57,371 nucleotides of DNA from an uncultured virus (IMG/VR IMGVR_UViG_3300028797_000122) (IMGVR_UViG_3300028797_000122); one strand, 5' to 3'; shown: positions 2,044 to 49,842, counted from the first letter of the stretch. Numbers and translations: made by a program. The notes: generated by a model not told the origin, from the letters alone.

Positions 2044-4806
2044 ATGATTAAGTACGTAATTAAAAGAGATGGCCGACGTGCCAAATTTAATCCAGTTAAA
2101 ATTTCTGACGCAATCACGAGTGCTTTCCTCGACAAGGAGATGCAGGTCGGGAAGAGGGAACTAGAAAATCTGACCGACAAGGTCTGTGACAAGATTGAAG
2201 CCTCTACGGACAAGCCGACGGTTAGCGTCGAGACTATCCAGGACATCGTTGAAGATGTACTCATGTCCAAGGACAAGTACAAGGAAGTTGCCAAGGCTTA
2301 CATCCTTTACCGGGCGGAAAGAACCCGCAAGCGTGAATCCAAGAGCAAGATTATCAGCACCATTCAGGAAATCAAGGCTGCCGACCTCAAAAGTTCCAAC
2401 ATCCTCCGTGACAACGCAAATGAATCTGGTTGCACTCCCGCAGGAGCATACGGAAAAATCGCATCAGAGACCAACAAGACTTACAACTTGCTCAATGTCG
2501 TGGACCGTAACATCGCCGAGCTCCATTCCAAGGGCTACATGCACATCCATGACCTGAACCTTTACGACCTCACTTTCAACTGTCTTTTTGCCCCAATCGG
2601 GAAGCTGCTGGAAAAGGGCTTCGACTCTGGTACGGGCTTCATCCGTGCCCCCAAGTCAATCCAGTCTGCCGCATCTATCACCGCCGTAATCCTGCAGCTT
2701 CAATCTAACCAGCAGTTCGGTGGCATCGCTTCCGCAAACCTCGACTTCGAACTCGCCCCCTATGTGGACATGTCCTTCAAGAAGAATCTTGCGTGGATTA
2801 TCGCTTCCGAAAAGGTGTTGGGCGAAAGAAGTCTCGGTTTCGAGTCCTTCGATGACATCGACAATGCAGAAATCGAGAAGGAAATCAAGAAGGAAGCTCA
2901 CGCTATCCGCAGCCAGATGGCTAAGGACGGCCTCAGCCTCGACCAGCCGTTCAAGGATGTCGTCGCAAAGTACGACCGCAAGGCTGTCGTTCAGGCTTAC
3001 ATCAAGACCAAGGACGATACCTACCAGGCGATGGAAGGTCTCGTACACAACCTCAACTCATTGCAGTCCCGCTCTGGCAACCAGGTTCCGTTCAGCAGCT
3101 TGAACTTTGGCCTTGACACTTCCCGTTGCGGTCGTCTCGTTTCGAGCAACCTTATCGCAGCACAGATGGCAGGCCTCGGCGACGGACTTACAGCAATCTT
3201 CCCGATTCTTATCTTCAAGTACATGAAGGGTGTCACCTATCTCCCGGACGACCCGAACTACGATTTGAGGAAGTCTGGTATCGCATGTCTCGCCCGCCGC
3301 TTCTACCCGAACGGTGTCGCAGTTGACAACGAGTTCAACGCCCCGTACATCCGCTACGAATACAACGACGATTTCAAGCTTACCGATGACACCATTGTCA
3401 AGAAGATTGGTAGCGACCGTGTTGCCAAGTATAGTGAAGTCGCTTCCGAAAACGATGTCTATCCTCGCTGGGAAGTCCTTGTTGACGGCAAGTACTGGCA
3501 GATTTGTAAGGGCCGTCTCCAACGCATCATTCCTGAAAGCACGGTTTCCACGATGGGCTGCCGCACCCGTGTTATCGGCAACGTGAATGGCCCGGAACAG
3601 ACTGTTGGCCGTGGCAACCTTGCGTTCCACACACTTAACCTCCCGAAGCTCGCAGTCGAGGCTCATATCGAGGCTACGACGGAAGCTGACCGCATCAAGC
3701 TCTTCAACGAGAAGCTTGACCGTATGCTCGTTGTCGCAAAGAAGTCCCTTGAAGACCGTTTCGAAGTTATCGCAAAGAAGACGTACGAGAACTTCCCGTT
3801 CACGATGCAACAGGGCCTGTATCTCACGTCCGACGACAAGGTTCACGACATTCATGACACCATCGCAGAAGTTCTCCGTCAGGGTACTCTCTCCATCGGT
3901 TACATCGGCGTTTACGAAGCTGTTCTCGCACTCACGGGCAAGACCTGGGGCAAGGACGAGGAAGTGTTCGATGTCGGTTACAACATGATTAAGCGTATCC
4001 GTGACTTCTGTGACAAGACCCAGAAGGAAACCCACATGAACTGGAGCTGCTTTGCAACTCCTGCAGAAGCCGTCTGTGGAAGGTTCTGCAACATCGACAT
4101 GCATCAGTTCATGAGGAACGCCGCACTCGAAGGTGAATTGTTCACGAAGGAAAGTTACGATATTGAGGATGCAAATGCTTGCATTTCCGTAAGGAATGTC
4201 GCTACGAAGAACAAGGTGTCGATTCCTTATCCTGAACTTCTCGAAAACAAGTCTGCCTATGTTGACAAGTACGAATATTGTCATGATGGAAAGTGGGGTA
4301 TCATCGACTCCATCAGCAAGCAGAAGATTGGCGTCAAGTATTGGACCGACTTCGGTTACCACATGTGGGGCAAGGGCTACCTGACCAACTCCCATATGCT
4401 TCCGTTCAGCTTGAAGACCACGCTTGCAAACAAAATCAAGTGGGAAGCTCCGTTCCACAAGATTACCAACGCTGGGCACATCTTCTACCACAAGATGGAT
4501 GGCGACCTCAGCAAGAACCTCGAAGGTGTCGAACAGGCGATGAACGCAATGTACGAGGGAGGCATGGGTTACTTCACGGTGACCATGGATTCCGATACGT
4601 GCATCGCTCCGCAGCCTAATGGAAAACCGTGCGGATTCCACGGTGTAATCAATGGCCGTTGCCCGAAGTGCGGTAATATGTTGGAAAAATATATCATTCG
4701 TGTAAGAAGAATAACAGGTTATCTTACGGGCGCCCCGCAGAAGTCGATATTTGACGCCTGGAACCAGGGTAAGATAAATGAATGGGGTGACCGAGTGAAC
4801 ATTTAA
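2044..4806 (+). CDS. nrdD: class III anaerobic ribonucleoside-triphosphate reductase with ATP-cone
   Basis: ATP-cone VIKRDG, HIHDL, finger loop MGCRT, TPAE, TNSH, C-terminal Cys cluster and glycyl-radical RRITGYL. Confidence 0.97.
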   Translation: MIKYVIKRDGRRAKFNPVKISDAITSAFLDKEMQVGKRELENLTDKVCDKIEASTDKPTVSVETIQDIVEDVLMSKDKYKEVAKAYILYRAERTRKRESKSKIISTIQEIKAADLKSSNILRDNANESGCTPAGAYGKIASETNKTYNLLNVVDRNIAELHSKGYMHIHDLNLYDLTFNCLFAPIGKLLEKGFDSGTGFIRAPKSIQSAASITAVILQLQSNQQFGGIASANLDFELAPYVDMSFKKNLAWIIASEKVLGERSLGFESFDDIDNAEIEKEIKKEAHAIRSQMAKDGLSLDQPFKDVVAKYDRKAVVQAYIKTKDDTYQAMEGLVHNLNSLQSRSGNQVPFSSLNFGLDTSRCGRLVSSNLIAAQMAGLGDGLTAIFPILIFKYMKGVTYLPDDPNYDLRKSGIACLARRFYPNGVAVDNEFNAPYIRYEYNDDFKLTDDTIVKKIGSDRVAKYSEVASENDVYPRWEVLVDGKYWQICKGRLQRIIPESTVSTMGCRTRVIGNVNGPEQTVGRGNLAFHTLNLPKLAVEAHIEATTEADRIKLFNEKLDRMLVVAKKSLEDRFEVIAKKTYENFPFTMQQGLYLTSDDKVHDIHDTIAEVLRQGTLSIGYIGVYEAVLALTGKTWGKDEEVFDVGYNMIKRIRDFCDKTQKETHMNWSCFATPAEAVCGRFCNIDMHQFMRNAALEGELFTKESYDIEDANACISVRNVATKNKVSIPYPELLENKSAYVDKYEYCHDGKWGIIDSISKQKIGVKYWTDFGYHMWGKGYLTNSHMLPFSLKTTLANKIKWEAPFHKITNAGHIFYHKMDGDLSKNLEGVEQAMNAMYEGGMGYFTVTMDSDTCIAPQPNGKPCGFHGVINGRCPKCGNMLEKYIIRVRRITGYLTGAPQKSIFDAWNQGKINEWGDRVNI

Positions 4807-9323: not shown

Positions 9324-10187
9324 ATGGCTAAATTTGCTATTAGCGTCAATGGTGGTGGCGCACTTGGTATTGGTCCCCTGCATTTCATGAGAAGGCTCGA
9401 ATCGGCTCTTGGAAAGCCGCTTACCGAGATGGCCGTTGCCTATGCTGGCACATCCACGGGCGCAATCATCGCAGCATGCCTGTCCGAGGGCATCAACGCT
9501 ACCAACCTGTTCGACCTGTACGACAAGAACCTTTCCAAGATATTCACCAAGTATTCGTGGTACAAGAGGTTGCAGCCTAGCTGTCCGACCTATGACAACA
9601 GCAACCTGAAGAAGCTGTTGCAGGAGAAGTTGAAGGGAAAGTGCAAGGACTGGAAAAAGCCTACCTACATCACGACAACTTTCATGAACGGAAAGTCCGT
9701 TGAAAAGGTATGGGATAACAAGGACGACCAAGACAAGTGGTTTGCGGTACTTTCTTCTACGGCGGCCCCGACATATTTCGATGTCCTCTCGAAGGACGGA
9801 AACTATTACTGTGACGGAGGCATGTGGTCAAACTCTCCGATTATGGTGCTTGAATCTGGTTTGAAGCGTGACTATCCTAACTGGAAGAATGTCAAGCTGC
9901 TCTCGTTCAACACGGGCATGGATACCCCGAACGATGACACCAAGGGAAACCGCAACTTGCTCCAATGGGGCGAGTACATCCTTGACAACTGGGTTGCAAG
10001 GGCTGGCAAGAGCGACCTCTTCGAAGCTCAGGCAAACCTCGGCAAGGAAAACGTGTACGAAGTGTCTCCTACGGTCAAGAAGAAATATAAAATGGATAAC
10101 CTGTCTTTGAAGAACGAGGTTATCCAGATTTGGGACAATGAATTCAACCGCATCGGTGACGAAGTGGTCAAGTTCATCAAGGGTTAA
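9324..10187 (+). CDS. patatin-like phospholipase
   Basis: GGGALG, GTSTG (GxSxG), SSTAAPTYF, DGG. Confidence 0.92.
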   Translation: MAKFAISVNGGGALGIGPLHFMRRLESALGKPLTEMAVAYAGTSTGAIIAACLSEGINATNLFDLYDKNLSKIFTKYSWYKRLQPSCPTYDNSNLKKLLQEKLKGKCKDWKKPTYITTTFMNGKSVEKVWDNKDDQDKWFAVLSSTAAPTYFDVLSKDGNYYCDGGMWSNSPIMVLESGLKRDYPNWKNVKLLSFNTGMDTPNDDTKGNRNLLQWGEYILDNWVARAGKSDLFEAQANLGKENVYEVSPTVKKKYKMDNLSLKNEVIQIWDNEFNRIGDEVVKFIKG

Positions 10188-10861
10188 CGCTTTGGCTGGG
10201 GATAGGTCACCTTCGAGTTCGAATGGATGTCGTATCCCCTCCATTCCATCCAGTAACCCATAATGTATTCTGAAAGATACCCGTAAAGGCGGGGTTCCAG
10301 TTTACCGTGCATCACGTCAACGGTGAACTTTTCCAGCATTGGGAAAAGGAACCTGGAGTAGTCGTCGACTACCCTCTTGTTTCCGATGAACATGTTGCAT
10401 CCGTAGTATCCACGTTCGGTAAGCATGCGGTTCATCATGTAGTCCACAAATTCGCTGGAATATCTGTCCCTAAGGTACATGAACCACTTGAACATCATTT
10501 CCTTCACGATGGTATCGGTGCTTGCGTTAGGGTTGTGCTTTTCCCTTGCAATCCATGACATGACGTTCGGCGAATACAGGTGGTTTGGGGACATGATGAT
10601 GTCGTGGCTGGACAATATGTTTTTGATTGTGTCTTCCTGGAGTAGACGGTCTGGCGTCTTGACATCTTCCGTGAAAAAGCGGCGATAATGTTCAAGGCCG
10701 ACGATGTCGGTGTTTACCTGTTTCCACAGCTTGTATAGACCTCCAAGCTCGCAGAAGTAATGGTGGTCAAGGTAGCAGTTGGTCAAGTTGTAGAAGGCAC
10801 GGGGACGGCCTACGCTGACAGGCACCAGTGTCGGGTCGAGTCCGCAAATAAGGATAAGCAT
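10184..10861 (-). CDS. DUF4422 family glycosyltransferase
   Basis: FCELGGLY, VGLEHYRRFF, CNMFI, R.YGYLSE; start MLILICG coupled to the upstream stop. Confidence 0.8.
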   Translation of the reverse strand: MLILICGLDPTLVPVSVGRPRAFYNLTNCYLDHHYFCELGGLYKLWKQVNTDIVGLEHYRRFFTEDVKTPDRLLQEDTIKNILSSHDIIMSPNHLYSPNVMSWIAREKHNPNASTDTIVKEMMFKWFMYLRDRYSSEFVDYMMNRMLTERGYYGCNMFIGNKRVVDDYSRFLFPMLEKFTVDVMHGKLEPRLYGYLSEYIMGYWMEWRGYDIHSNSKVTYPQPKR

Positions 10862-12339
10862 TAGAGTTCCTCCCTGCAAATAACGGTTCTTTCGGTTTCT
10901 TCCAGGTCGCTGAGGTCCTTGTTGAAACGGATGTGGGGTTGCAGTTTCAATTTGTACTTGTTGAACAGGAGCCATGAGCCGAAGGTAAATTCGCCTAGGT
11001 AACCGATGTGACGGAATTTCTTTTCCGAAACCGGGTACTTCTTCATGAATTTTCTGGTGTTCGGGAACAGCCATTCGCAATACTTGTCTATCAGCTCCTT
11101 CTTGGCGATAAACATGTTGCAGCAAATGAGCATGTCGTGATGCAGCCTGTCAAGGCAGAACTGCTTGAAACCGGGGGTTCCTTCCTCGACGATATCCAGC
11201 CATGCGTTGAACATCTTCGTATAGTGGGATACTTCGAGGAAGCTGTATGCGCTCCTTCCTTTGGTGTGCTGGTGGAATGCGACGATGGCGTCGTATTTTT
11301 CGAGAATTTCGAGGGCATCGCTTTTCGGGAGGATGTTGTACGAGCTATTTACATCGTAACTTCCGTTGTCCTGCATGACGAAGCATCTGCGGTAATGTTC
11401 GAGGCCGACATACTTTGCCTTACTGTGCTTGTGCAGGTAATACAGGGCCGTCAGCTCGCAGAACCACGGGTTGAACTTGTCGATGTTCGGCTCGTCGTGT
11501 TCCTCGTCAACAAAGAAGAATTTGCGGCACGGGTCGTTCTCGATGATTCTGGCAACACGGTTCTTCGTGGACGATACTACATAGACTTCCATTTCTTCGT
11601 CAGGGTCACCTTCTTTCTTCAACGGCAGTGCGTGTGAAATAGGAGGGAAGAGTTTGTCGTAATACTTTTGCACCGCCTCGATGATTGCTTCCTTGTTCTG
11701 TGGTTCTGGAAGTTCTAATGCGGGTGAGAGGTGCCTGATGTCCAGTTCGTAGTCGGCACATACAATCGCCATGAAAATGTAGGCGGTATCTTCGTTCATC
11801 GGAACCGTGTCGAAATCGAACTCGTGCATGAATGTGAACATCGTCGAGTCGGATGGCGGATACAGAGTGTCCTGCGGGCACACGATTTCGTAATACTTGT
11901 TAGACAGGTTCGTATCTTTCCTCTTCTCGGCAAGAGAGGAGAAGGTCGCAACTGGCTTGTCATCGTTCCGTGACACCTTGACCAGGTTGAAAGCTGCGGT
12001 GCAGATGCTTCTCGGGAATTTCTCGTGCATCCTGTACAGTCCTTCGAGGCAGTTCGAATCGTAGTTGATTCCCGACTTTACCGAAATTATAGGAAGTGAT
12101 GGGTATTCGTCCATCCCGTATACGATTGCCGCCAACGGGTCGTCCGTGGGTGCCATCAGATGGGTGCTTACCCTGTTCATTTCCTTGATTGCCTCGGGGA
12201 CGGTAAACCCTTCCGTTTCGGTCTGGATGCACAGAAGTACGTTGATTTCTGGATTCTTGTTCAGGATTGAGCATACTGTCTTGCGGCATTGGCCCAATTC
12301 ATGTTCTTTAACTTGCAAAACGGCGATAGCTTTTGTCAT
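10861..12339 (-). CDS. GT-like N-domain plus DUF4422 glycosyltransferase
   Basis: NPWFCELTALY, VGLEHYRRCF, CNMFIAKK...YCEWLF, R.IGYLGE. Confidence 0.82.
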   Translation of the reverse strand: MTKAIAVLQVKEHELGQCRKTVCSILNKNPEINVLLCIQTETEGFTVPEAIKEMNRVSTHLMAPTDDPLAAIVYGMDEYPSLPIISVKSGINYDSNCLEGLYRMHEKFPRSICTAAFNLVKVSRNDDKPVATFSSLAEKRKDTNLSNKYYEIVCPQDTLYPPSDSTMFTFMHEFDFDTVPMNEDTAYIFMAIVCADYELDIRHLSPALELPEPQNKEAIIEAVQKYYDKLFPPISHALPLKKEGDPDEEMEVYVVSSTKNRVARIIENDPCRKFFFVDEEHDEPNIDKFNPWFCELTALYYLHKHSKAKYVGLEHYRRCFVMQDNGSYDVNSSYNILPKSDALEILEKYDAIVAFHQHTKGRSAYSFLEVSHYTKMFNAWLDIVEEGTPGFKQFCLDRLHHDMLICCNMFIAKKELIDKYCEWLFPNTRKFMKKYPVSEKKFRHIGYLGEFTFGSWLLFNKYKLKLQPHIRFNKDLSDLEETERTVICREEL

Positions 12340-17530: not shown

Positions 17531-17713
17531 ATGCGTACACCACGAAAAGACATGTTTGTTTCCATATACGCCCTCGTCTGGGGTGTAACCGATATGGTTC
17601 TGTACTTTGTGTATGGCATGGATACGACGATGGTTTCAAATTGTGTGTTTATCATTCTGCTGATTGCTGTATTGATGTGCAGCCCTCTTATGCGATGGTT
17701 GAATAAAAAATAA
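17531..17713 (+). CDS. small 2-TM protein
   Basis: AGGA RBS, hydrophobic. Confidence 0.6.
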   Translation: MRTPRKDMFVSIYALVWGVTDMVLYFVYGMDTTMVSNCVFIILLIAVLMCSPLMRWLNKK

Positions 17714-17721
17714 AACACCCC

Positions 17722-17750
17722 TTGACAAGACTTTTTTAATGTTCTATATT
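17722..17750 (+). promoter_or_regulatory. sigma70-type early promoter of the NAD operon
   Basis: TTGACA-N17-TATATT. Confidence 0.8.
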
Positions 17751-17751
17751 T

Positions 17752-17781
17752 TCTCCTGTACAACCACAGGAGATTTCTTTT
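17752..17781 (+). terminator. hairpin/terminator overlapping the predicted TSS and the pncA RBS
   Basis: TCTCCTGT-6-ACAGGAGA plus TTTCTTTT. Confidence 0.6.
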
Positions 17782-18327
17782 ATGAAAAATAAAAACCTTA
17801 TCATCGTCGACATGCAAGTTGACTTCATCACTGGCGCCCTCGCCAATCCCAACCAAGAATGGGCACATACGGTAATCAAGAACATCTTCGAGCTACTCAA
17901 GAAATTTGATGGCAGGGTCTGGTTCACCCGTGACACTCATTCCATGAACTATCTTGAAACCCAGGAAGGCAAGAATCTTAAGGTTCCGCACTGCATCAAG
18001 GGCACTCCTGGATGGGAAATCATCTCTGAATTCCGCCCGTGGGTCAACGAACATAATGTCATCGATAAGAACACTTTTGGGTTCCCGTACTGGGGTGTTG
18101 TCCTCGGCGACCACGATACCTATTCTGGTATCGAAATTCCGCCGACCGAGGTCTACCTCGCTGGTACTGTAACTAGCATCTGCGTGGACAGCAATGCAAA
18201 CGGTGTCAAGACGGCGTTCCCCGAAGCTATCGTCGGCGTGTACAAGGACTGCTGCCTCGACGTCGACAAGAAACATCACGAAGCCGCATTGTTGGCAATG
18301 TCGGCAAAGCAAATCCAGATTCTCTAA
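17782..18327 (+). CDS. pncA: nicotinamidase (isochorismatase family)
   Basis: IVDMQVDF, RDTH, PHC..GT.GW, K, ICV catalytic/metal residues; operon context. Confidence 0.85.
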   Translation: MKNKNLIIVDMQVDFITGALANPNQEWAHTVIKNIFELLKKFDGRVWFTRDTHSMNYLETQEGKNLKVPHCIKGTPGWEIISEFRPWVNEHNVIDKNTFGFPYWGVVLGDHDTYSGIEIPPTEVYLAGTVTSICVDSNANGVKTAFPEAIVGVYKDCCLDVDKKHHEAALLAMSAKQIQIL

Positions 18328-18339
18328 AAAGGAAACATC

Positions 18340-18795
18340 ATGCTCTTAGATACATTAAACGACAAAATCAAGGAATTCATGAAAGCTCACGACACGGTAG
18401 GCCTGACTGCCCTCCGTACGCTCGTGTCCGACATCAAGAATGCGGCCATCGCTGCTCAGAAACCTGTTGACGACGCTATGTGTATCGCCGTTCTCGACAA
18501 GGCTATCAAGCAGAAGAACGAAACCATCGAAGGTTATGCCAAGGCTGGCAAGACCGAGCGAGCTGATGAAGAAAAGAAGACTCTCGAACTCTACAAGCAG
18601 TACATGCCTGCCCAGATGTCCGAAGACGAAGTTGTCGCTGAAATTGCAAAGGCTATCGAATCTACTGGCGCCTGTGAACAGAAGGATATGGGCAAGGTCA
18701 TGAAGATTCTTACGCCCATCATCAAGGGTCGTTTCGACGGCAAGGCTGCAAGCCAGTTGGTGGTCAAGGCGTTGCTTGCAAAGGCTGGTAAGTAA
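18340..18795 (+). CDS. GatB/YqeY domain protein
   Basis: K..MKA.D......LR, YMPAQMSE.E, DMGKVM, GRFDGK. Confidence 0.9.
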   Translation: MLLDTLNDKIKEFMKAHDTVGLTALRTLVSDIKNAAIAAQKPVDDAMCIAVLDKAIKQKNETIEGYAKAGKTERADEEKKTLELYKQYMPAQMSEDEVVAEIAKAIESTGACEQKDMGKVMKILTPIIKGRFDGKAASQLVVKALLAKAGK

Positions 18796-19850
18796 TGAAG
18801 AATTGGGTTTACATCGGCAGGTTCCAACCGTTCCACAACGGCCATCTTGACGTTCTGCACCAGATTATTGACAAGATGGACAAGAATGTGGACACTATTA
18901 CCCTTATCCTCGGGTCTTCCGATTCTGGAAGCCCTAGGAATCCTCTTGACTCGATTACCCGTTACGAAATGATTCAGTCTATCCTTGACAATGACTCGTA
19001 CATTGCCGAGAATAGGGTACGCTGTCGTATTCTCGTAGAGAGCATCCATGATTCTCCGTACAACTGGACCATGTTCGGAAAATGGCTTCAGTCGCAGCTT
19101 CGCCTTCATATGACTCTATGTGACAACATCCTTTGTGGCATGGAGTACATCAAGGAATATGCAAACCTTGTCGGAGTGCCCTATTGGCAGGCAACGGAAA
19201 ACGTACATATCCATGCGACGCAAATCCGTCAGGCCTTTGTCGAGAACGACACCGAGTACCTTAAAGCGAAACTTCCCGCAGGAGTTTTCGCCGACGAGGA
19301 ACTCTATGCACGAATCAAGGAACAAATCGTCAATGCCCGCAACTTGCAGCTCAAATACATCAAGGATTTGAACCCGAAGTACGCATCTGTCTACAAGACG
19401 GTTGACAACGTCGTCCTTTGCGGTGGTCATATCCTGTTTGTCGTCCGCAAGGATAACGGAAAGTACGCCCTCCCTGGCGGATTCCAGGACCCGACGGACC
19501 TTTCCGCACAGAAAGCTGCAGAGCGTGAACTGATGGAGGAAACCGGGTTGGATTCTTCCGATTGGACCCCGTCCGCATCGAAGAATTTCGACGCCCCGTT
19601 CCGTGACCCCCGTTCGAGCGAAAAGGTAAACGCAGAGACTACGGCGTTCCTTTACCGTATCAACCCGAAGTACCTGCTTAGCCCAAACGGCGTGATGGTT
19701 CCTCAGCTTCCGAAGGTGGTAGGCCAGGACGATGCAGCCGACGCTGTATGGCTCAGTCTGAATGAAGTTTGTGGATATCCTGAAAACAGGTTCCATGCAG
19801 ACCACAAGAAAATTATCTTAAACATGCTCGGGCTTGAACCGAGATTCTAA
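18795..19850 (+). CDS. bifunctional NMN/NaMN adenylyltransferase - ADP-ribose pyrophosphatase (NadM-Nudix, NatV-like)
   Basis: IGRFQPFHNGH, NPL, HATQIR; Nudix box PGGF...AAERELMEETG, RDPR, F.ADH. Confidence 0.92.
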   Translation: MKNWVYIGRFQPFHNGHLDVLHQIIDKMDKNVDTITLILGSSDSGSPRNPLDSITRYEMIQSILDNDSYIAENRVRCRILVESIHDSPYNWTMFGKWLQSQLRLHMTLCDNILCGMEYIKEYANLVGVPYWQATENVHIHATQIRQAFVENDTEYLKAKLPAGVFADEELYARIKEQIVNARNLQLKYIKDLNPKYASVYKTVDNVVLCGGHILFVVRKDNGKYALPGGFQDPTDLSAQKAAERELMEETGLDSSDWTPSASKNFDAPFRDPRSSEKVNAETTAFLYRINPKYLLSPNGVMVPQLPKVVGQDDAADAVWLSLNEVCGYPENRFHADHKKIILNMLGLEPRF

Positions 19851-19870
19851 CTCAAAAGGATGGTAATCAA

Positions 19871-21133
19871 ATGCTAGACCATTGGTGTATAGAAAGTCTG
19901 CTTGAGACAGACCTCTACAAGTTCAATATGGATAACCTGTACTTTACCCAGTACAGCGACTACACAGGAAAATGGGCATACAAGTGCCGCAACCGCAAGG
20001 ATGGAAGCGTCGTTGTCTTCACTAAGGAAGACGTTGCCGAAATCAACCGCCAGATTGACCACCTTTGCACCCTCATGTTTACCCAGAGAGAACTTAGCAT
20101 GCTCTTCGGTGAAGCTACCTGGCTTACCCCGTCGTTCAGGCATTTCCTGAGCATGTTCCATCTTGACCGTGACGAAATCCGTGTCGTGTACGACGAAAGC
20201 ATCGAGTCCAAGATGGCAATCGAAGCTGGTGGCGACCTCGACCCGTTGATGCGAAACACTTACTTCGAAATCTACGTTCTCGCCATTGTGAACGAAGTTT
20301 ACTTCTACCATCACAACAAGAACTACGCCGAACTCGAAGAGGAAGCAATCCGTCGTATCGACAAGAAGATTGCACAGCTTGCAAAGGGCGAATACGTTAT
20401 CGGCCCGTTCTCCGAATTTGGCCTCCGTCGTCGTTTCTCCCGCAAGGTTCAGGATTACCTCGTCCGTGCTTTCGCCAATGCCCAGAAGGCTGGTATTCTC
20501 GGTAAGTCCATCTTCCTCGGTACTTCCAATGTGTACCTCGCATTGAAGTACGGTGTGAAGCTTATCGGAACAATCGCCCATGAAGCTGTCGAAGCTATCG
20601 GCCAGGGCGACCCGATGTTCAACCCTGCCTACTCCAACCGTCTCATGATGGACGCATGGCAGAGACAGTACAAGGGCTGCAACGGTATCTACCTCACCGA
20701 CTGTGTCCGTACCGATACATTCCTCATGGACCTCACCCGTAACGATGTCCGTGTCTGGGATGGTTTCAGACACGATTCGGGCGACCCGTATGCTTGGGGC
20801 GAAAAGATGATTGATGCAATCCAGCGTCTCGGTGGCGACCCGATGCAGAAGACTTTGCTCTTCTCCGACTCCCTCGACTTCGAACGTGCAAGCAAGCTCT
20901 ACGCCCATTTCAGCCCTCGTGCCAAGGTAGGCTTCGGTATCGGAACCTTCCTGTCCAACGACTGCGGAGTGGAACCGCTCAACCAGGTCATGAAGCTCAT
21001 CGAATGCAATGGCCGTCCTGTCGCAAAGATTTCCGACACCGAAGGAAAGCTTATGTGCCGTGATGCCGGATATGTCGATTGGCTGAAGCGTACGCTTGAC
21101 TGGCGTCTTACCCACGAAGTTAAAAAATTCTAA
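19871..21133 (+). CDS. pncB: nicotinate phosphoribosyltransferase
   Basis: TDLYK, EFGLRRR, GTSN, GTIAHE, RHDSGDP, FSDSLD, FGIGT, AKISD. Confidence 0.93.
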   Translation: MLDHWCIESLLETDLYKFNMDNLYFTQYSDYTGKWAYKCRNRKDGSVVVFTKEDVAEINRQIDHLCTLMFTQRELSMLFGEATWLTPSFRHFLSMFHLDRDEIRVVYDESIESKMAIEAGGDLDPLMRNTYFEIYVLAIVNEVYFYHHNKNYAELEEEAIRRIDKKIAQLAKGEYVIGPFSEFGLRRRFSRKVQDYLVRAFANAQKAGILGKSIFLGTSNVYLALKYGVKLIGTIAHEAVEAIGQGDPMFNPAYSNRLMMDAWQRQYKGCNGIYLTDCVRTDTFLMDLTRNDVRVWDGFRHDSGDPYAWGEKMIDAIQRLGGDPMQKTLLFSDSLDFERASKLYAHFSPRAKVGFGIGTFLSNDCGVEPLNQVMKLIECNGRPVAKISDTEGKLMCRDAGYVDWLKRTLDWRLTHEVKKF

Positions 21134-21142
21134 GATAATCCC

Positions 21143-21171
21143 TTGACAGGAGTCTTTTAATTAGTTATATT
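21143..21171 (+). promoter_or_regulatory. sigma70-type early promoter
   Basis: TTGACA-N17-TATATT. Confidence 0.8.
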
Positions 21172-21199
21172 AAGTGACGGAAACATCCGTCACTTTTTT
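21172..21199 (+). terminator. terminator overlapping the predicted TSS
   Basis: AAGTGACGGA-AACA-TCCGTCACTT plus TTTT. Confidence 0.7.
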
Positions 21200-21213
21200 A
21201 TTAGGAGTAAATC

Positions 21214-21825
21214 ATGATTCAACACGTTGTTGGCGACATGCTCGATTTCAGTAAGGATACACCCGATATCATCATCCACCAGACCAACTGCGAAGGCAAG
21301 ATGGGTGGCGGTGTAGCCAAGGTCATCAAGGAAAAGTTCCCTAAGGTCTATGTGGAATATCTCGAATTTATCGCACACAATCTGTTCGAACAGCGGGATA
21401 CCATAGCTCTGCCGATAAAGTGCAGCAACCTGCTTGGAAGATTTTTTTACAGCGATGTTACTGTCGGTGACAAGAGCGTACTTTTTGTCGACCTGTTTGC
21501 TCAGGATAGTTGCTCGGAAGGAACAAGCTCGTTTAGCGAAAAGCGCTTTACCAGCTACGATGCGATGCACGAGGGACTGATTGATATCAGAAACATGCTT
21601 GTGTTTTCGTATCATGTTCAGAAGTTGCATGGCACCCGTCCTGTCAAAATCTGGATGCCAGAAAAGATTGGTTGTGTCAAGGGCGGCGGTAAGTATGAAA
21701 TCGTCAAGGCAATCGTCGAAAGCGTGTTCGACAATCCTAGCTTCAGCAATATGATTGACCTTACCCTGTTCACCTTGCCTGAAAAGAATTCTAACTTGCC
21801 TAAGGGACCTTTCGATGCGATGTAA
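21214..21825 (+). CDS. macrodomain protein (ADP-ribose binding/hydrolase)
   Basis: GD, HQTNC.GKMGGGVA..IK.KFP, LFAQ, P.KIGC..GGG. Confidence 0.88.
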   Translation: MIQHVVGDMLDFSKDTPDIIIHQTNCEGKMGGGVAKVIKEKFPKVYVEYLEFIAHNLFEQRDTIALPIKCSNLLGRFFYSDVTVGDKSVLFVDLFAQDSCSEGTSSFSEKRFTSYDAMHEGLIDIRNMLVFSYHVQKLHGTRPVKIWMPEKIGCVKGGGKYEIVKAIVESVFDNPSFSNMIDLTLFTLPEKNSNLPKGPFDAM

Positions 21826-22099
21826 GAATTGTCCCTACGAAGATTACGACTACCAGGAGAATTATCCGTGTTGTCAGCTCTTCGGCGATAACGAGGACTT
21901 TATCTATGAAAACTCCAAGGGCGAACTCGGATGCAAATACAACATGCGTAGTCTGCAGAAGTTCGTCCGGGAGCGAGAAGAGGACGAAAAGGTTATCGTG
22001 CAACAGATGGGAGATTTCGTGAAATGGTGCGAAGAGCACCCGAACCCTCCCTATGACGACCCAGAACCCGAGGTGAAAAATGATACGAGAAAAGAGTGA
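21815..22099 (+). CDS. hypothetical Cys-containing protein
   Basis: ORF, CxxCP. Confidence 0.65.
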   Translation: MRCKNCPYEDYDYQENYPCCQLFGDNEDFIYENSKGELGCKYNMRSLQKFVREREEDEKVIVQQMGDFVKWCEEHPNPPYDDPEPEVKNDTRKE

Positions 22100-22256
22100 C
22101 TTCAAGTGCCGCCACGACCTGCTTGAAATCTGGGAGTGGATGGAAGGGACGTTCATCAGGGAGTGCCTCAACAAGGGTATCGACCCAGACGATTTTGGCG
22201 AAATCGACGTGTCTTTCTCCGTCGCAGTAAAGCAAACAAGAAAACCTGAACCGTAA
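22080..22256 (+). CDS. hypothetical protein (58 aa, not in ORF track)
   Basis: GAGG RBS, fills the gap. Confidence 0.55.
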   Translation: MIREKSDFKCRHDLLEIWEWMEGTFIRECLNKGIDPDDFGEIDVSFSVAVKQTRKPEP

Positions 22257-22264
22257 CTAAAAAT

Positions 22265-22585
22265 ATGGCATTCCATCATCATTTCGGAACACATTACAGC
22301 ACGTTGAACCCAGTTCACCCGCTGAACCAATTTAATCCGGCAAGCCCGTACTATCACTTGTACCACAGCAAGAATGATGTGCTCGTCCAGCCACACCAGG
22401 CAGTATCGTTTGAAGCACAGGAATTTCTCGTCATGGGCGGTTGCTTCCTGACGGCAGTGTTAATCGTTGCCGCCATCGGAACCATTATCAGGCACAGAAG
22501 CAACAAGAAATTTGATGCTAAACTGAAACAGATTGAGAAACGCTGGAAGAACTCCCCGTTGAAACCCAAAATTGAAAGGGAATGA
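22265..22585 (+). CDS. hypothetical single-TM protein
   Basis: NP repeats (NPVHPLNQFNPASP) plus TM segment. Confidence 0.65.
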   Translation: MAFHHHFGTHYSTLNPVHPLNQFNPASPYYHLYHSKNDVLVQPHQAVSFEAQEFLVMGGCFLTAVLIVAAIGTIIRHRSNKKFDAKLKQIEKRWKNSPLKPKIERE

Positions 22586-22878
22586 GTATGCACCCGTACA
22601 AGATTAGAGTGTTCCTTGACCATAGCGGTGTCGTAACGGATTTCGTCATGGCGGACACCGAGTTCGAGACAATCGAGGCTGCCCGCCTGTACATCAAGAA
22701 GCAGTTCGACGATACCATCACAAATCTCGAAAATACGAACACGTCCTATACCGTGTCCTGTATTGCCAACAAGGACAGCATTGATATCCCACGGGGTTAT
22801 CAACAGGATTACGAATCCGTCTTTTACAAAAAGCTATTTACGGATAATTTCACGATGATTATGGAAATCATCCGATAG
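22582..22878 (+). CDS. hypothetical protein
   Basis: coupled ORF. Confidence 0.65.
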   Translation: MSMHPYKIRVFLDHSGVVTDFVMADTEFETIEAARLYIKKQFDDTITNLENTNTSYTVSCIANKDSIDIPRGYQQDYESVFYKKLFTDNFTMIMEIIR

Positions 22879-22890
22879 GAGACATGGACT

Positions 22891-23277
22891 ATGAATTACA
22901 ACTACAAAAAGAACATTGACAAGCAAATCATAAAGCTTCGCTTTGTTCATTCATACAAGGAGTATTATTCCTTGCAGTTCAAAACTACTGGATGGTTTGC
23001 CAAGTGGATTACCGTAGAAGAATACAATCCTACGATAAGCGCTGCCGATAAACCATGCGGAATAACATCGTATGGCAACTGGGAAAATCGTTGGTGGAAA
23101 ATCGAATCTAACGAGTACGGGAAGAAACTTCTGGACGAACTTAGGGCCAAGCTGAAAACAGTCGGCGACATTTACAGTACCTATATCGAGCCTGAAGAAA
23201 AACGCATGGCAGCCGACTATAAAAGATACGAGGAGTACTGGGATAAAATAAATTCAGTTAGCGCTATTATCAAATAG
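22891..23277 (+). CDS. hypothetical protein
   Basis: ORF with RBS. Confidence 0.7.
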   Translation: MNYNYKKNIDKQIIKLRFVHSYKEYYSLQFKTTGWFAKWITVEEYNPTISAADKPCGITSYGNWENRWWKIESNEYGKKLLDELRAKLKTVGDIYSTYIEPEEKRMAADYKRYEEYWDKINSVSAIIK

Positions 23278-23280
23278 TGG

Positions 23281-23309
23281 TTGACAACCTTTTCGTATTT
23301 ATCTATATT
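23281..23309 (+). promoter_or_regulatory. sigma70-type early promoter for nadE
   Basis: TTGACA-N17-TATATT. Confidence 0.8.
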
Positions 23310-23340
23310 TCCATTGAAAATATCAAAAACGAGGTATGAT

Positions 23341-24165
23341 ATGAATATGGCCGATACGGCGTATAAGAAACTCTTTGATGTTGCTAAAGAGTGCGACTTG
23401 ATGAAAGCTCACATGTTTAAATGGTTTGCCGAACACGGGTTTACCAAGGCTGTCGTCGGGGTTTCTGGCGGGGCTGACTCGACCGTTACTTGCAAGGTTG
23501 CTTGCGACGTGCTTGGCCCAAAGAATGTGTACGCAGTGAAGATGCCGAACGGAGTCCAGGCTGACATCGCCGACTCCAACAGTGTCGTTGAATTTTGCGA
23601 CTGCAATGAATCCACGATTAACATTTCCGATGCGTTCAAGGGCTTGAACGAACAGTTCATCAAGAGCGGTTTCGAACTCAACAGTGTCTACTCGACGAAC
23701 ACTCCCGCACGCCTCCGTATGGCTACTCTCTATGGTGTTTCCGCCATTGTAGGTGGCGTTGTCCTCAATACCTGCAACCTTTCCGAAGACTGTGCATGGG
23801 GCAACTTCTCCACGCTCTATGGTGACAACGCTGGTTCCTATGCATGTCTCCAGGGCTTTACCAAGACCGAAGTGCGTATGCTTGGCGAATATCTCGGCAT
23901 CCCGAGCAAACTCGTGTGGAAGACTCCTAGCGACGGCATGTGCGGCAAGTCCGACGAAGCTAGAATTGCCGAACTGTCTGGGGTGAGCAAATTTACTTAT
24001 GCCGAGTTCGACAAGTTCATCCGTGGATTGGAAACCTCTTTCAGCCGTAGCGACATGCAGCGTCTCATCTGGGGTTACAAGAAGGGCACGTTCAAGAATG
24101 AACTCGTGAACATCCCGCATTATACTCCCAAGCTTCCCAACGTATTTATCGACAACAAGTGGTAA
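23341..24165 (+). CDS. nadE: NH3-dependent NAD+ synthetase
   Basis: GVSGGADS PP-loop, N..ARLRM, NT.N.SE, TLYGD, KTEV, KTPSDG; no glutaminase domain. Confidence 0.92.
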   Translation: MNMADTAYKKLFDVAKECDLMKAHMFKWFAEHGFTKAVVGVSGGADSTVTCKVACDVLGPKNVYAVKMPNGVQADIADSNSVVEFCDCNESTINISDAFKGLNEQFIKSGFELNSVYSTNTPARLRMATLYGVSAIVGGVVLNTCNLSEDCAWGNFSTLYGDNAGSYACLQGFTKTEVRMLGEYLGIPSKLVWKTPSDGMCGKSDEARIAELSGVSKFTYAEFDKFIRGLETSFSRSDMQRLIWGYKKGTFKNELVNIPHYTPKLPNVFIDNKW

Positions 24166-24168
24166 ATC

Positions 24169-24621
24169 ATGAGCAGTCTTTATGTAGGAGAGATATCTCT
24201 CGACACGTTCAAGGAGGTGTGCGAACGCCACCATCTTGAAACCGAGACGCCATCAGAAGACGGAATGGGGTTGTTCTGTGCTGTCCTCAACGTGACGGAA
24301 GACGTGTTCATGCTTATCACGTACTCGGACGAGGCCGATGGCCGCAAGTACGTGAGCCTGTTCGCATCTAACCGCAAGACGGGTTCCACGCAGAAGATAA
24401 GTCACGTCCCTGCGTACCACAACAACCTCATCAGCGCAATCAGGACGGCAAACCGTTTTTACGACGACACCAAGGCAAGGGGGCTTGCAGTAGTCCCCCG
24501 CAAAATAAAGAAGGATGACAATGAAGGTAATGGTAACGGGCCACAGGCCAGAGAGAATAACGGGCAGGGAACAGGAAATCAAGGAATGGCTGACGAAGAA
24601 GGTCGAGGAACTGAAACCTAG
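24169..24621 (+). CDS. hypothetical protein
   Basis: ORF; 3' end overlaps the next gene. Confidence 0.6.
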   Translation: MSSLYVGEISLDTFKEVCERHHLETETPSEDGMGLFCAVLNVTEDVFMLITYSDEADGRKYVSLFASNRKTGSTQKISHVPAYHNNLISAIRTANRFYDDTKARGLAVVPRKIKKDDNEGNGNGPQARENNGQGTGNQGMADEEGRGTET

Positions 24622-25015
24622 CGACTGCATCTCCGGGATGGCCCAGGGTGCCGACCAGATTTATGCGGAGGTCGCTTATGAAAAGGGTATTCCTCTTATT
24701 TGTGCTTGGCCTTATGAGCGCAAGCTTCATCCTGTTGAGCAGAAGTATCACGACTATGCGGAAGTGAACCATGTTGCCTTCCACAAGTTCCAGCCAAGCT
24801 GCTATGCCACCCGTGACAAGTGGATGGTGGACAACTGCGACATCGTCCTTGCCGTATGGGACGGAAACCCTGTCGGCGGCACTTACGACACGATTGAGTA
24901 CGCCAAGCAGAAGCACAAGCACATCTACCTCTTCCCTTGGACTGCGGAATCAATCACTGAGATTATCCCGATGAACCCTCCGCAGAAAACACCCGACGGT
25001 TGGACCCTCTACTAG
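24521..25015 (+). CDS. SLOG-superfamily (YspA/DUF1273-like) protein
   Basis: VTGHRP, ISGMAQGAD, RDKWMVDNCD.VLAVWDG...GGT..TI.YA. Confidence 0.85.
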   Translation: MKVMVTGHRPERITGREQEIKEWLTKKVEELKPSDCISGMAQGADQIYAEVAYEKGIPLICAWPYERKLHPVEQKYHDYAEVNHVAFHKFQPSCYATRDKWMVDNCDIVLAVWDGNPVGGTYDTIEYAKQKHKHIYLFPWTAESITEIIPMNPPQKTPDGWTLY

Positions 25016-25976: not shown

Positions 25977-26241
25977 CAAAGACTATGTCAACCTCAATCT
26001 AGTCGAGGTTGTGCGCCCGATTGAAACTGACAAGATAGTGACAGGCTACCAAATCATTTTGATATCGGGACGCAATTACACGGTAAGCAAGAAAGTAGGA
26101 GATTCTATCCGTCTCGCAATGAATGCCAGCAGTACCACGGTAGTAGGAAACGCTGCCAAGAAGAAATCAGATAAAAGCCTTCAGGAAGTCCTCCAAATGG
26201 CAAAAGCTGTTAACAACCCGTTGAAAGGTAAGTTGAAATGA
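25960..26241 (+). CDS. hypothetical protein
   Basis: ORF in operon. Confidence 0.6.
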   Translation: MLREINKDYVNLNLVEVVRPIETDKIVTGYQIILISGRNYTVSKKVGDSIRLAMNASSTTVVGNAAKKKSDKSLQEVLQMAKAVNNPLKGKLK

Positions 26242-26864
26242 GTGATTGGCTTAACAACATCAAGGCGTTCGGTGACACTAAGCTGGAACTCCGTGCAGTA
26301 ACCTTGTTCGAGGAGTTCAAGAAGGTTGTCATCAAGGCTGGGGTTGAAAATCCAGACGAGTATGCGGAAAACATGTTCGACCGCATTATGCACATCTTCA
26401 AGACCACCGAAAGGACATACTGCGTCGGTCCGCATGACGGCGTAATCGACTCGTTCTTCGGGCCGTACCGATTCCTTAGCAACTTCGAACCGTGTACCGT
26501 GGAATACGAGGGGATGACCTACAACTGTTCCGAAGCTGCATACCAGGCAGCTAAGACGACGGATGTTTCCCTCCGTATCGCCTTCGCTACGATGAACGGT
26601 TCCAAGGCGAAGTTTGCTGGCCAGAAACTCCCGATTCGAGCAGACTGGAACGATGTCAAGGTCGATGTTATGTACCAAATCGTGAAGGACAAGTTCTCCC
26701 GCAATCCAGAGTTGAAAGAGAAGCTCCTCAGTACGGGAACTCTCCAGCTCATAGAGGGCAACTACTGGGGCGACAAGTTCTGGGGTATCTGCAACGGGGA
26801 AGGCGAAAACCATCTCGGCAAGATTCTCATGAGGGTCCGCAGGGAACTGTCCAAACAAATTTAG
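26238..26864 (+). CDS. NADAR (YbiA-like) family protein with N-terminal extension
   Basis: FLSNF, SEAAYQA.K, R.DW..VK..VM, KF..NP.L...LL.TG...LIEGN.WGD.FWG...G.GENHLGKILM. Confidence 0.93.
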   Translation: MSDWLNNIKAFGDTKLELRAVTLFEEFKKVVIKAGVENPDEYAENMFDRIMHIFKTTERTYCVGPHDGVIDSFFGPYRFLSNFEPCTVEYEGMTYNCSEAAYQAAKTTDVSLRIAFATMNGSKAKFAGQKLPIRADWNDVKVDVMYQIVKDKFSRNPELKEKLLSTGTLQLIEGNYWGDKFWGICNGEGENHLGKILMRVRRELSKQI

Positions 26865-36990: not shown

Positions 36991-37064
36991 TGTCCCGTAG
37001 TTTAACTGGAAAAATGTGGCCCTCCGAAGGCCAAGACGTGCGTGTTCGAATCACGTCGGGACAA
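36991..37064 (+). tRNA. tRNA-Arg(CCG)
   Basis: acceptor TGTCCCG/CGGGACA, anticodon arm TGGCC-CTCCGAA-GGCCA, T-loop TTCGAAT; CCA not encoded. Confidence 0.88.
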
Positions 37065-37085
37065 CTTTAATACTTAGGTAGAATC

Positions 37086-48798: not shown

Positions 48799-49842
48799 CT
48801 AAACTCTAACGGCACCATTATTGGAATACGGCGCCCAATATATTTTGTAATTTTTCATTGTTAGCCAAGCGCCAAAGAAAAACTCGCTAATATAGCCGTT
48901 TATTCTTCTGTTATTTTCAGTAAGAATTACCTTTTTATTGTATTCGGCGAATGTATTGAAAAGCCAATTAAAGTACTCATCAATAACCTGTCTCTTACCA
49001 ATCATCAAATTTCCTTGACAATGCCATTGCCCATATAAAAACTCATTGAAAAAATTAGCAACATCATTTCCGTACATTTCACGCACAGTGCCGATGAACG
49101 CAAAGAAGTCATCTTTTTTGCCGTTTCGTATCGGCCAGGTGAAAATATGCGAACCATTTCCATTTGGATAATGTTCTTTGGCACAAATCACGTCGAAGTC
49201 AGTAAGTATAGAGGAGATTTCTGCTTCGCCCAATAAATTATGCTTGGTTGAATCAAGGAAAAAACGACGATATTGTTCTAGTCCGACGATATTTGCATCG
49301 CAGTGTTTCAATAAGTAGTATAATCCGCTCAGCTCACAATACCACGGATTTAATGTATCTATATTGTCTCCGTCATGGTGTTCATCTATCAAATACTTCT
49401 CACGGATAGTGTCTAATGGACGAAATTCATTCTTGCTACTACCGACTACATATATTTTAATGTTTGAGTGCTTGTCTGAATCATGATTTGCAACAGTGGT
49501 GGTATCCATTTGTTTATTCTTAGAATGAATCTTTAATTTAAACTCCTGGAATTGTCGTTCATGCCAACTAAGTTCATCGTCACTTAACTGTATATAACTA
49601 TTATGAAAGCTTGGGTCAGCGTAAGTTGGTGAGGCATGAGGTGCATCCTTCATGCGGTTAATGATGTTATCTAGCTGAGACCCAGTGCCAAAATGGAACT
49701 TCGGCATCTCTCTTTGTCTTGCCTCAAATGCAGCAGCATCCTGTTCAACCTTGGTCGGTAGTTTAGGGTTTGTCACGGCGGGTACGCCAACATGAGGTGC
49801 ATTACGCATCCTGTTCAGGATGTCTTCAAAAGACGTTCCCAT
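48799..49842 (-). CDS. DUF4422 family glycosyltransferase with repeat-containing N-terminal extension
   Basis: GDNID.LNPWYCELSGLY, VGLEQYRRFF, R..GYISE. Confidence 0.82.
   Translation of the reverse strand: MGTSFEDILNRMRNAPHVGVPAVTNPKLPTKVEQDAAAFEARQREMPKFHFGTGSQLDNIINRMKDAPHASPTYADPSFHNSYIQLSDDELSWHERQFQEFKLKIHSKNKQMDTTTVANHDSDKHSNIKIYVVGSSKNEFRPLDTIREKYLIDEHHDGDNIDTLNPWYCELSGLYYLLKHCDANIVGLEQYRRFFLDSTKHNLLGEAEISSILTDFDVICAKEHYPNGNGSHIFTWPIRNGKKDDFFAFIGTVREMYGNDVANFFNEFLYGQWHCQGNLMIGKRQVIDEYFNWLFNTFAEYNKKVILTENNRRINGYISEFFFGAWLTMKNYKIYWAPYSNNGAVRV

Follow-up and report, generated by a model that had tools for sequence, protein, structure and literature searches.

Predicted deamidating NAD+ salvage genes in a T4-like jumbo phage of a probable Fibrobacterales host

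The genome of the uncultured virus IMGVR_UViG_3300028797_000122 (IMG/VR) contains, within a 57,371-nucleotide stretch referred to here as the window, a block of four genes at positions 17722–24165 that is predicted to rebuild NAD+ from nicotinamide by way of deamidated intermediates. The block encodes the nicotinamidase-like PncA, a NadM-type adenylyltransferase fused to a Nudix domain, the nicotinate phosphoribosyltransferase (PRTase) PncB and a single-domain NadE, all on the + strand (Table 1), and both coordinates and family matches agree with the place that an initial annotation, made from sequence alone, had given them. Very probably, the block constitutes a working deamidating NAD+ salvage route.

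PncB exceeds the cut-offs of TIGR01514 (343 versus 269.55) and PRK05321 (393 versus 379), and all six of its matches in the Protein Data Bank (PDB) are nicotinate PRTases (best E 1.5e-70). The profile comparison with the NadV/Nampt clade is therefore settled in favor of PncB, and by family the phage enzyme is a nicotinate PRTase and not NadV/Nampt. PncA matches PF00857 with 82 bits (cut-off 27), its best PDB match being the Pyrococcus pyrazinamidase/nicotinamidase 1ilw (E 1.4e-8). It contains D10, K96 and C134, presumably the catalytic triad, and D51, H53 and H70, which we take to be the metal site; all six residues are invariant in the relatives described below. With an isochorismatase fold, an Asp-Lys-Cys triad and an Asp/His/His metal site, it has the predicted features of a nicotinamidase.

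The NadM-Nudix protein aligns over its full length to the bifunctional enzymes of Synechocystis (2qjo, E 1.4e-18) and Francisella (2qjt, E 1e-17), and its best NCBIfam model is PRK05379 (128 bits, under the cut-off of 397). The GRFQPFHNGH motif and the Nudix box are kept in the relatives. Its architecture, motifs and expected chemistry are those of the bacterial NadM-Nudix enzymes and of the PncA-PncB-NadD-NadE cycle, but unlike the bacterial proteins it is divergent (the best named cellular match among the 120 matches listed is 36% identical), phage-borne and paired with PncB. NadE scores 118 against the TIGR00552 cut-off of 63.65, lacks a glutaminase domain, and belongs to a divergent clade found mostly in gut phages and metagenomes. 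Its best PDB match is 6kv3 (E 1.6e-20). The SGGxDS motif, T144, E149 and D205 are kept in 120–121 of the 121 aligned sequences, and the catalytic residues named in the available text of PMC12143786, which are common to all NadE enzymes, align to D46, T144, E149, K175, S197 and D205.

The block has three distinct relatives, the viral contigs L024, L025 and L026 (a fourth, L023, is an identical copy), and a second viral search with the NadM-Nudix protein as query returned only the same four contigs. The four proteins are 68–88% identical to those of the distinct relatives and are free of stops. The ratio of nonsynonymous to synonymous substitution rates (dN/dS) is 0.11–0.29 for pncA, 0.12–0.14 for nadM, 0.12–0.20 for pncB and 0.09–0.16 for nadE, so that the four genes are under purifying selection. 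The impression that their catalytic motifs are intact is thus upheld.

The genes pncA, yqeY, nadM and pncB are separated by 12, −1 and 20 bases and form one promoter-to-terminator unit. The motif TTGACA-N17-TATATT occurs upstream of pncA, the macrodomain-like gene and nadE, and in this strict form it is found 76 times genome-wide, with 73 of the 76 copies within 200 bp of a gene start, as compared to a mean of 1.2 and a maximum of 4 in 20 block shuffles. A loose promoter scan of the region was at chance level (12 sites against an expected 10.7). The strict motif is concentrated where genes are small and is rare among the structural genes, a distribution that fits early transcription by the host polymerase, with the timing suggested by the host-sigma70-like consensus. 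A hairpin followed by a T run (21172–21201), conserved in all three distinct relatives, probably ends the pncB transcript.

The single early-promoter operon of pncA, NadM-Nudix and pncB proposed by the initial annotation therefore stands as a transcription unit, with “early” deduced from the promoter consensus; yqeY, whose product is not an NAD enzyme, had been overlooked inside it, as had the terminator-like hairpin and the further promoter between pncB and the macrodomain-like gene. The gene nadE lies in a separate unit. Its distance from pncB (2,207 bp) and the motif before it agree with the description of a gene about 2.2 kb downstream with its own promoter, but that promoter is present only in the window and in one of the three distinct relatives: no promoter motif was found before nadE in L025 and L026, and tblastn did not find the small ORFs (open reading frames) between the macrodomain-like gene and nadE there. 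The nadE start, formerly placed at TTG 23281, is corrected to ATG 23341, which is preceded by a GAGG site. The hairpin at 17752–17773 hides the pncA ribosome-binding site, and it should form in read-through transcripts but be absent from transcripts initiated at the pncA promoter. Metatranscriptome contigs from four runs of three studies touch all four genes; they were dropped as evidence of transcription or its timing because coverage extends to the genes on either side and the contigs may stem from carried-over DNA.

Table 1. Features of the NAD block and its surroundings (window coordinates)
Feature	Position	Strand	Basis and conservation
Sigma70-type promoter TTGACA-N17-TATATT of the pncA-yqeY-nadM-pncB unit	17722..17750	+	Kept in 3/3 distinct relatives
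Conserved hairpin overlapping the expected transcription start; 3' arm contains the pncA ribosome-binding site	17752..17773	+	Stem kept, loop variable in L024-L026
PncA-like nicotinamidase, 181 aa	17782..18327	+	PF00857
YqeY-like protein	18340..18795	+	PF09424, 134 bits
NadM-type adenylyltransferase fused to Nudix (ADP-ribose pyrophosphatase-like), 351 aa	18795..19850	+	PF01467 + PF00293
PncB nicotinate phosphoribosyltransferase, 420 aa	19871..21133	+	TIGR01514, PRK05321
Second promoter overlapped by terminator-like hairpin	21143..21201	+	Both kept in 3/3 distinct relatives
Macrodomain-like protein	21214..21825	+	Weak DarG match
Four small ORFs of no known family	21815..23277	+	No Pfam match; variably present in relatives
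Promoter upstream of nadE	23281..23309	+	In L024; not found in L025/L026
NadE, single-domain NH3-type, 274 aa	23341..24165	+	PF02540, TIGR00552
YpsA/SLOG-like neighbor	24515..25015	+	PF12694, 20.8 bits, under cut-off 26.2
NADAR neighbor, ADP-ribose-handling family	26238..26864	+	PF08719, 94.5 bits; TIGR02464 above cut-off

The window corresponds to positions 304,729–362,099 of a single contig of 422,150 bp, which has direct terminal repeats, is 100% complete as a virus record and is well over the 200 kb that defines a jumbo phage. PHROG matches include a T4-like major capsid protein, portal, large terminase, baseplate, tail tube, primase, helicase and late sigma factor; the genome is that of a complete T4-like jumbo phage. 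A bovine gut run holds contigs near-identical to the region. The nearest named PncB homologs are cellular (Butyrivibrio, Treponema, Bacteroidales; about 50% identity), which would suit a stretch that is cellular, a recently acquired passenger or decaying. Such an origin, which the initial annotation had named as fatal to its proposal, is hardly credible and was set aside: besides the terminal repeats and the capsid, portal and terminase genes, the block is syntenic in three other viral contigs, its GC content at third codon positions lies inside the range of the genome, and its genes are under purifying selection.

The host is probably a member of a Fibrobacterales family, Fibrobacter-type. 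A phage gene that we take from its motif to be thyA is 90% identical to that of a Fibrobacterales metagenome-assembled genome (MAG), the next organism among the matches listed being at 78%, and it is 84–91% identical to copies in at least 66 of 91 genomes taken from that MAG's family. The phage NrdG and YqeY proteins are 59–61% and 50–53% identical, respectively, to the copies of the host family in five of five genomes. From the 91 genomes, 34 were picked for closer study (the 28 closest by ThyA and six with long contigs), with a five-genome subset used for some genes. NadA and NadE are present in all 34, and NadD-like (below cut-off) and PncC/CinA proteins in five of five, while PF04095 (PncB/Nampt) matches in only one of the 91 genomes and neither PF00857 (PncA) nor PnuC was found in any of the 34. 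Because NadA and NadE are present and the salvage families are absent or nearly so, the probable host appears to make NAD+ de novo only, with no apparent means of salvaging nicotinamide, nicotinate or nicotinamide riboside; the missing salvage routes would therefore be supplied by the phage. An origin of the phage pncB in this family was considered and rejected, since the family lacks the gene and the single match (G083, L108) is only 35% identical. That locus (G083:C105:4526-8224) is a pncA-pncB-NadD/Nudix cluster by an HD gene, and may be a mis-binned phage or mobile element.

The SIR2-type NADase defenses invoked by the initial annotation do occur in the probable host lineage. Strong SIR2_2 matches were found in six of the 34 genomes, and PADLOC identified Thoeris (G060), DSR2 (G057) and SIR2-HerA (G067 and G023), so that at least four of the 34 carry one of these systems; two further large SIR2 proteins gave weaker DSR2-like PADLOC scores. 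DarT is present in one of the 34, and a conserved sirtuin-like host gene shows weak PF13289 matches. The survey of NADases covered SIR2_2 and DarT, with TIR, SEFIR and RES lying outside it.

The gene set recurs in other viruses. An alignment search with PncB kept the best 80 of 208 viral relatives, 76 of them outside this clade, and within 10 kb of these 76 pncB loci a pncA is found at 72, a nadE at 72 and both at 69; among the loci with full flanks, both are present at 53 of 55. A PF01467 protein is encoded in all 24 hand-picked pncB phage records (above cut-off in 23). The best models of these adenylyltransferases are NadD-, NadM- or NadR-NMNAT-like, all below cut-off, with one of the 14 scanned proteins being CoaD, and the adenylyltransferase slot is therefore taken by enzymes of more than one type. 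A related NadE clade (35–44% identical) is paired with NadD-like enzymes in the largest cluster. Stand-alone NadR-type NMNAT domains take the slot in L132/L136 (L231, L232), L142 (L230, L234) and L160 (L235), and in L132 the domain lies between pncA and pncB-nadE. Among deposited phages, 14 records match PncB. Sinorhizobium phage Phosso (PV764938) has nadE, pncB, Nudix, adenylyltransferase and isochorismatase-family genes within 6 kb, and Agrobacterium phage Atu_ph07 (NC_042013) encodes the same functions with nadE elsewhere. The co-occurrence of pncA, pncB, an adenylyltransferase gene and nadE is thus confirmed.

Several neighbors of the block may handle ADP-ribose derivatives. The macrodomain-like protein, a possible ADP-ribosyl hydrolase, matches DarG weakly (E 1.5e-6, residues 2–51) with no Pfam match; its gene is present in all three relatives with a dN/dS of 0.24–0.27. 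The YpsA/SLOG-like protein is 81–90% identical in the relatives, and the NADAR gene has a dN/dS of about 0.1. The block also adjoins the nucleotide-supply genes nrdG and nrdD (class III ribonucleotide reductase). The 920-aa NrdD (window 2044–4803) is matched by its models in several pieces, which suggests an insertion such as an intein.

About 258 kb from the block, at C1 64,649-66,478 (L004:11252-13078, - strand), lies an adjacent pnuC-nadR pair that is preceded by a copy of the promoter motif of the block. PnuC scores 97.9 against the TIGR01528 cut-off of 42.45, and the NadR-like protein lacks an HTH (helix-turn-helix) domain and spans positions 64–407 of the 411 of NF005988, under the cut-off. 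The pair is also present in the complete relative G002, with NadR 89% identical. The initial annotation had noted no Prs in the window, and this extends to the complete phage genome, where PF14572 and PF13793 (Prs/Adps) were not found (controls 14/14). Among NAD consumers, the genome encodes an NAD-dependent DNA ligase (LigA). It looks split (L006:7081-10055, - strand), with its adenylation/OB and BRCT parts on either side of a trypsin-like peptidase gene. No ADP-ribosyltransferase, sirtuin or KptA was found with Pfam, PHROG and NCBIfam models in nearly all of the 335 ORFs of at least 130 aa, a scan that left out one 1,372-aa ORF, the thyA/DHFR-like ORFs and most of the 226 shorter ORFs, and that used PHROGs only for many structural ORFs. 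A transporter of the major facilitator superfamily (MFS; L013:1345-2469, C1 210,345-211,472) is nearest to the L-lactate monocarboxylate transporter model (219 bits, cut-off 320), and as a guess it might import nicotinate.

Other features of the genome concern different functions. The window has a single tRNA gene, tRNA-Arg(CCG), at 36991–37065, a patatin-like phospholipase resembling CBASS effectors at 9324–10187 (109 bits, cut-off 200; PADLOC 125 bits), and a GC-poor part (34–38%) at 46–50 kb. Several DUF4422 and glycosyltransferase genes and a UDP-galactopyranose mutase are located at window 10187–12339 and 48802–49842 and at L005:7177-8430 and 17589-19392. An RNA-repair set comprises RtcB, TROVE/Ro60, a CCA-adding-type polymerase and Thg1 (L004:9585-10775, L006:12961-14295, L020:7274-8692, L020:14023-15063), and IF3, PTH2, ClpX, DnaJ and two HSP20 genes are encoded elsewhere.

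Gene sets of this kind, clusters for the Preiss-Handler route, have been described by Li et al. 2024 (Microbiome, PMC11662467) in sequence-only work, without experiments, on 174 NAD-jumbo phages. The accessible text reports a pncB-nadD-nadE cluster in Kuafu_71 and states complementarity with a de-novo-only host for Kuafu_19, and in the text layer of its Fig. S7 the labels run ‘nadDnadEpncBpncA’ for Kuafu_71 and, for Zhurong_5, ‘pncApncB’ with nadE/nadM labels in between. The present virus encodes the genes that define this group, PncB, a nicotinate mononucleotide (NaMN)/nicotinamide mononucleotide (NMN) adenylyltransferase and NadE, and like those phages it is a livestock-gut jumbo phage in which pncB, nadD or nadM, and nadE cluster, with pncA also on the Fig. 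S7 maps. Unlike them, it has a NadM-Nudix fusion, nadE in a separate unit and a probable Fibrobacterales host; the word ‘Fibrobacterales’ is not found in the main text of that paper. The four-gene set is thus a further example of a published jumbo-phage gene set, to which the present sequence observation adds one well-supported case.

Neither the novelty of the set nor the name “third NARP” (NAD+ reconstitution pathway) can be kept, as NARP3 already denotes PnuC + NadR, which counters Sir2-HerA (Yan et al. 2026, Sci Adv, PMC13464706); pncA, pncB and nadE do not appear in the main text of that paper as far as available. The phage resembles NARP3 carriers in its adjacent pnuC and HTH-less nadR, but the block itself is without a transporter or ribosylnicotinamide kinase (pnuC and nadR were not found at 17722–24165), and its route would be deamidated. 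With NARP2 (Nampt + Nmnat, as in KVP40) and NARP1 (Adps + Namat) the block shares a PF04095-family PRTase and a HIGH-type adenylyltransferase for making NAD+ from nicotinamide. It further shares with NARP2 a route dependent on phosphoribosyl pyrophosphate (PRPP; Osterman et al., bioRxiv 10.1101/2024.02.11.579819) and the NadM-Nudix architecture, an NMN adenylyltransferase that is Nudix-fused in some NARP2 phages. It differs from NARP2 in that its PRTase is by family PncB, not a nicotinamide PRTase, and would hence need PncA and NadE, and from NARP1 in that no Prs/Adps-like gene was found in the phage genome and the PRTase is PncB-type, not Namat; as compared to both, its anti-defense role is that of a candidate only. 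The words pncA, pncB and deamidation are not used in the available text of Osterman et al.

Phosso and Atu_ph07 resemble the present phage in that each encodes a PncB exceeding the TIGR01514 cut-off, together with NadE, a Nudix protein, a NadM-like adenylyltransferase and a PncA-like protein of the isochorismatase family. Their PncB is only about 31% identical, however, the adenylyltransferase and Nudix proteins have separate genes, and the NadE of Atu_ph07, in a frame of 561 codons, is encoded 89 kb away. NadR and PnuC are likewise found in Atu_ph07 (PMC6102473). A 2026 review (PMC13728456) describes, in the part available, only NARP1 and NARP2. The literature searched, which largely excluded subscription papers, yielded no experiment that tests a deamidating route against defenses, and the name ‘NARP4’ was found there only with one unrelated preprint. 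What is new here is the host context, with salvage absent and NADase defenses present, the co-occurring NARP3-type pair, and two cultured carriers for testing.

From the genes, their families, the selection on them and the presence and absence of host genes, the following order of steps can be proposed, with catalysis, host, timing and purpose all stated conditionally. The block would be transcribed from host-RNA-polymerase-type promoters. PncA would convert nicotinamide to nicotinate, from which PncB would form NaMN with the use of host PRPP. NaMN would be adenylylated to nicotinate adenine dinucleotide (NaAD) by the NadM domain or by host NadD, and phage NadE, using NH3, or host NadE would yield NAD+. 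The Nudix domain would cleave ADP-ribose to AMP and ribose-5-phosphate, which could reach PRPP only via host Prs, and the PnuC-NadR pair would add salvage of nicotinamide riboside. Both routes would sustain the NAD+ pool of a de-novo-only Fibrobacter-type host for the needs of the phage, such as its NAD-dependent ligase, and probably also against host NADases.

Several points weigh against this proposal. The NCBIfam nicotinamidase models give no match to PncA, and the only family whose cut-off it exceeds is the broad isochorismatase one; the NadM-Nudix protein reaches none of the curated cut-offs, and the solved structures nearest to it were deposited as NMN adenylyltransferases, NadM enzymes being possibly NMN/NaMN bifunctional or NMN-adapted (PMC3376133). 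The host Prs-family match is weak (E ~1e-6 in five of five genomes), many of the host-family genomes are incomplete MAGs, and the host assignment is based on sequence similarity, not on CRISPR spacers or isolation. In addition, 67 of the 76 viral loci fall in one cluster of a redundant set, which leaves about seven independent cases. A Francisella-like order, in which NadE is an NMN synthetase (NaMN to NMN) and NadM then adenylylates NMN, so that NaAD is bypassed, is unlikely here. It would account for NadM in place of NadD, as in Francisella (PMC3376133), and for the retention of a phage NadE despite that of the host; the Francisella enzyme is the fourth-best PDB match of the phage NadE, and some phages have this clade beside NadR-type NMNAT domains, which makes those represented by L132/L136, L142 and L160 candidates for the NMN-synthetase route. 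However, the PDB scores do not discriminate (the top four span E 1.6e-20 to 3.2e-18), archaeal NadM pairs with a conventional NadE (PMC3376133), and in 17 of the 24 records considered (five scanned, the rest near-identical) the clade is accompanied by NadD-like enzymes. The pairing of the related NadE clade with NadD-like enzymes in the largest cluster would favor NaAD as the substrate.

What a deamidating salvage route is for can be read in two ways that differ in purpose, are not mutually exclusive and are both compatible with it. Selection mainly as counter-defense, as a fourth NARP that would recycle both products of SIR2/TIR NADases while the macrodomain-like, SLOG-like and NADAR proteins would remove ADP-ribose derivatives, has close to an even chance. 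The host family has Thoeris, DSR2, SIR2-HerA and the two large SIR2 proteins, a host without PncA and PncB cannot reuse released nicotinamide, and the ADP-ribose-handling neighbors are kept in all three relatives. On the other hand, strong SIR2_2 matches and DarT are confined to few of the host genomes, and shielded intermediates would not shield NAD+ itself, so that an escape of deamidated intermediates from the NADases would leave the final product unprotected. NAD-depleting defenses work in laboratory E. coli and B. subtilis despite their own PncA and PncB (both have PF04095 and PF00857 genes, as the search controls show). The route is long, with four steps and a need for host PRPP, and it costs more ATP than NARP1 or NARP2; sirtuin-type enzymes could also be freed from product inhibition once nicotinamide is removed. 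A search with single-sequence profiles of low reach found neither Macro nor NADAR beside any of the 76 other viral pncB loci. In favor of counter-defense, the genome carries a pair of the NARP3 type, which in other work countered Sir2-HerA (PMC13464706), and Iyer et al. 2021 (PMC7824862) interpreted the NAD synthesis, Macro, NADAR and Nudix proteins of jumbo phages as counters to NADases.

A purely auxiliary metabolic module, which would scavenge nicotinate, nicotinamide and the riboside from rumen fluid and NAD turnover for a large burst and have no anti-defense role, is plausible, somewhat short of even. It suits a de-novo-only host, for which Li et al. describe such complementarity in Kuafu_19 (PMC11662467), as well as the NAD-dependent ligase, the adjoining nrdG and nrdD, the monocarboxylate-type MFS transporter, and the conserved sirtuin-like host gene, which could yield nicotinamide steadily. 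It leaves unexplained the ADP-ribose-handling Nudix fusion and neighbors, however, and NARP2 and NARP3 look equally metabolic yet counter defenses.

It is tentatively suggested that the widespread phage pncA-pncB-adenylyltransferase-nadE set is an experimentally unrecognized fourth NAD+ reconstitution pathway, which would matter most in salvage-less hosts such as Fibrobacterales, where NADase cleavage would otherwise be a dead end; that in this phage it is combined with an importer of the NARP3 type and with enzymes that remove ADP-ribose; and that the NadE clade may be an NMN synthetase in some phages. If the route counters NADase defenses, more phages can rebuild NAD+ than the count of NARP1–3 implies, the route being common in gut phages, and gaps in host salvage would predict which route a phage carries. 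Since the full set is present in two cultured phages, Phosso and Atu_ph07, the anti-defense question is testable now. For rumen microbiology, the finding draws attention to a jumbo phage that would rewire the vitamin B3 metabolism of its probable host, a member of a major cellulose-degrading lineage.

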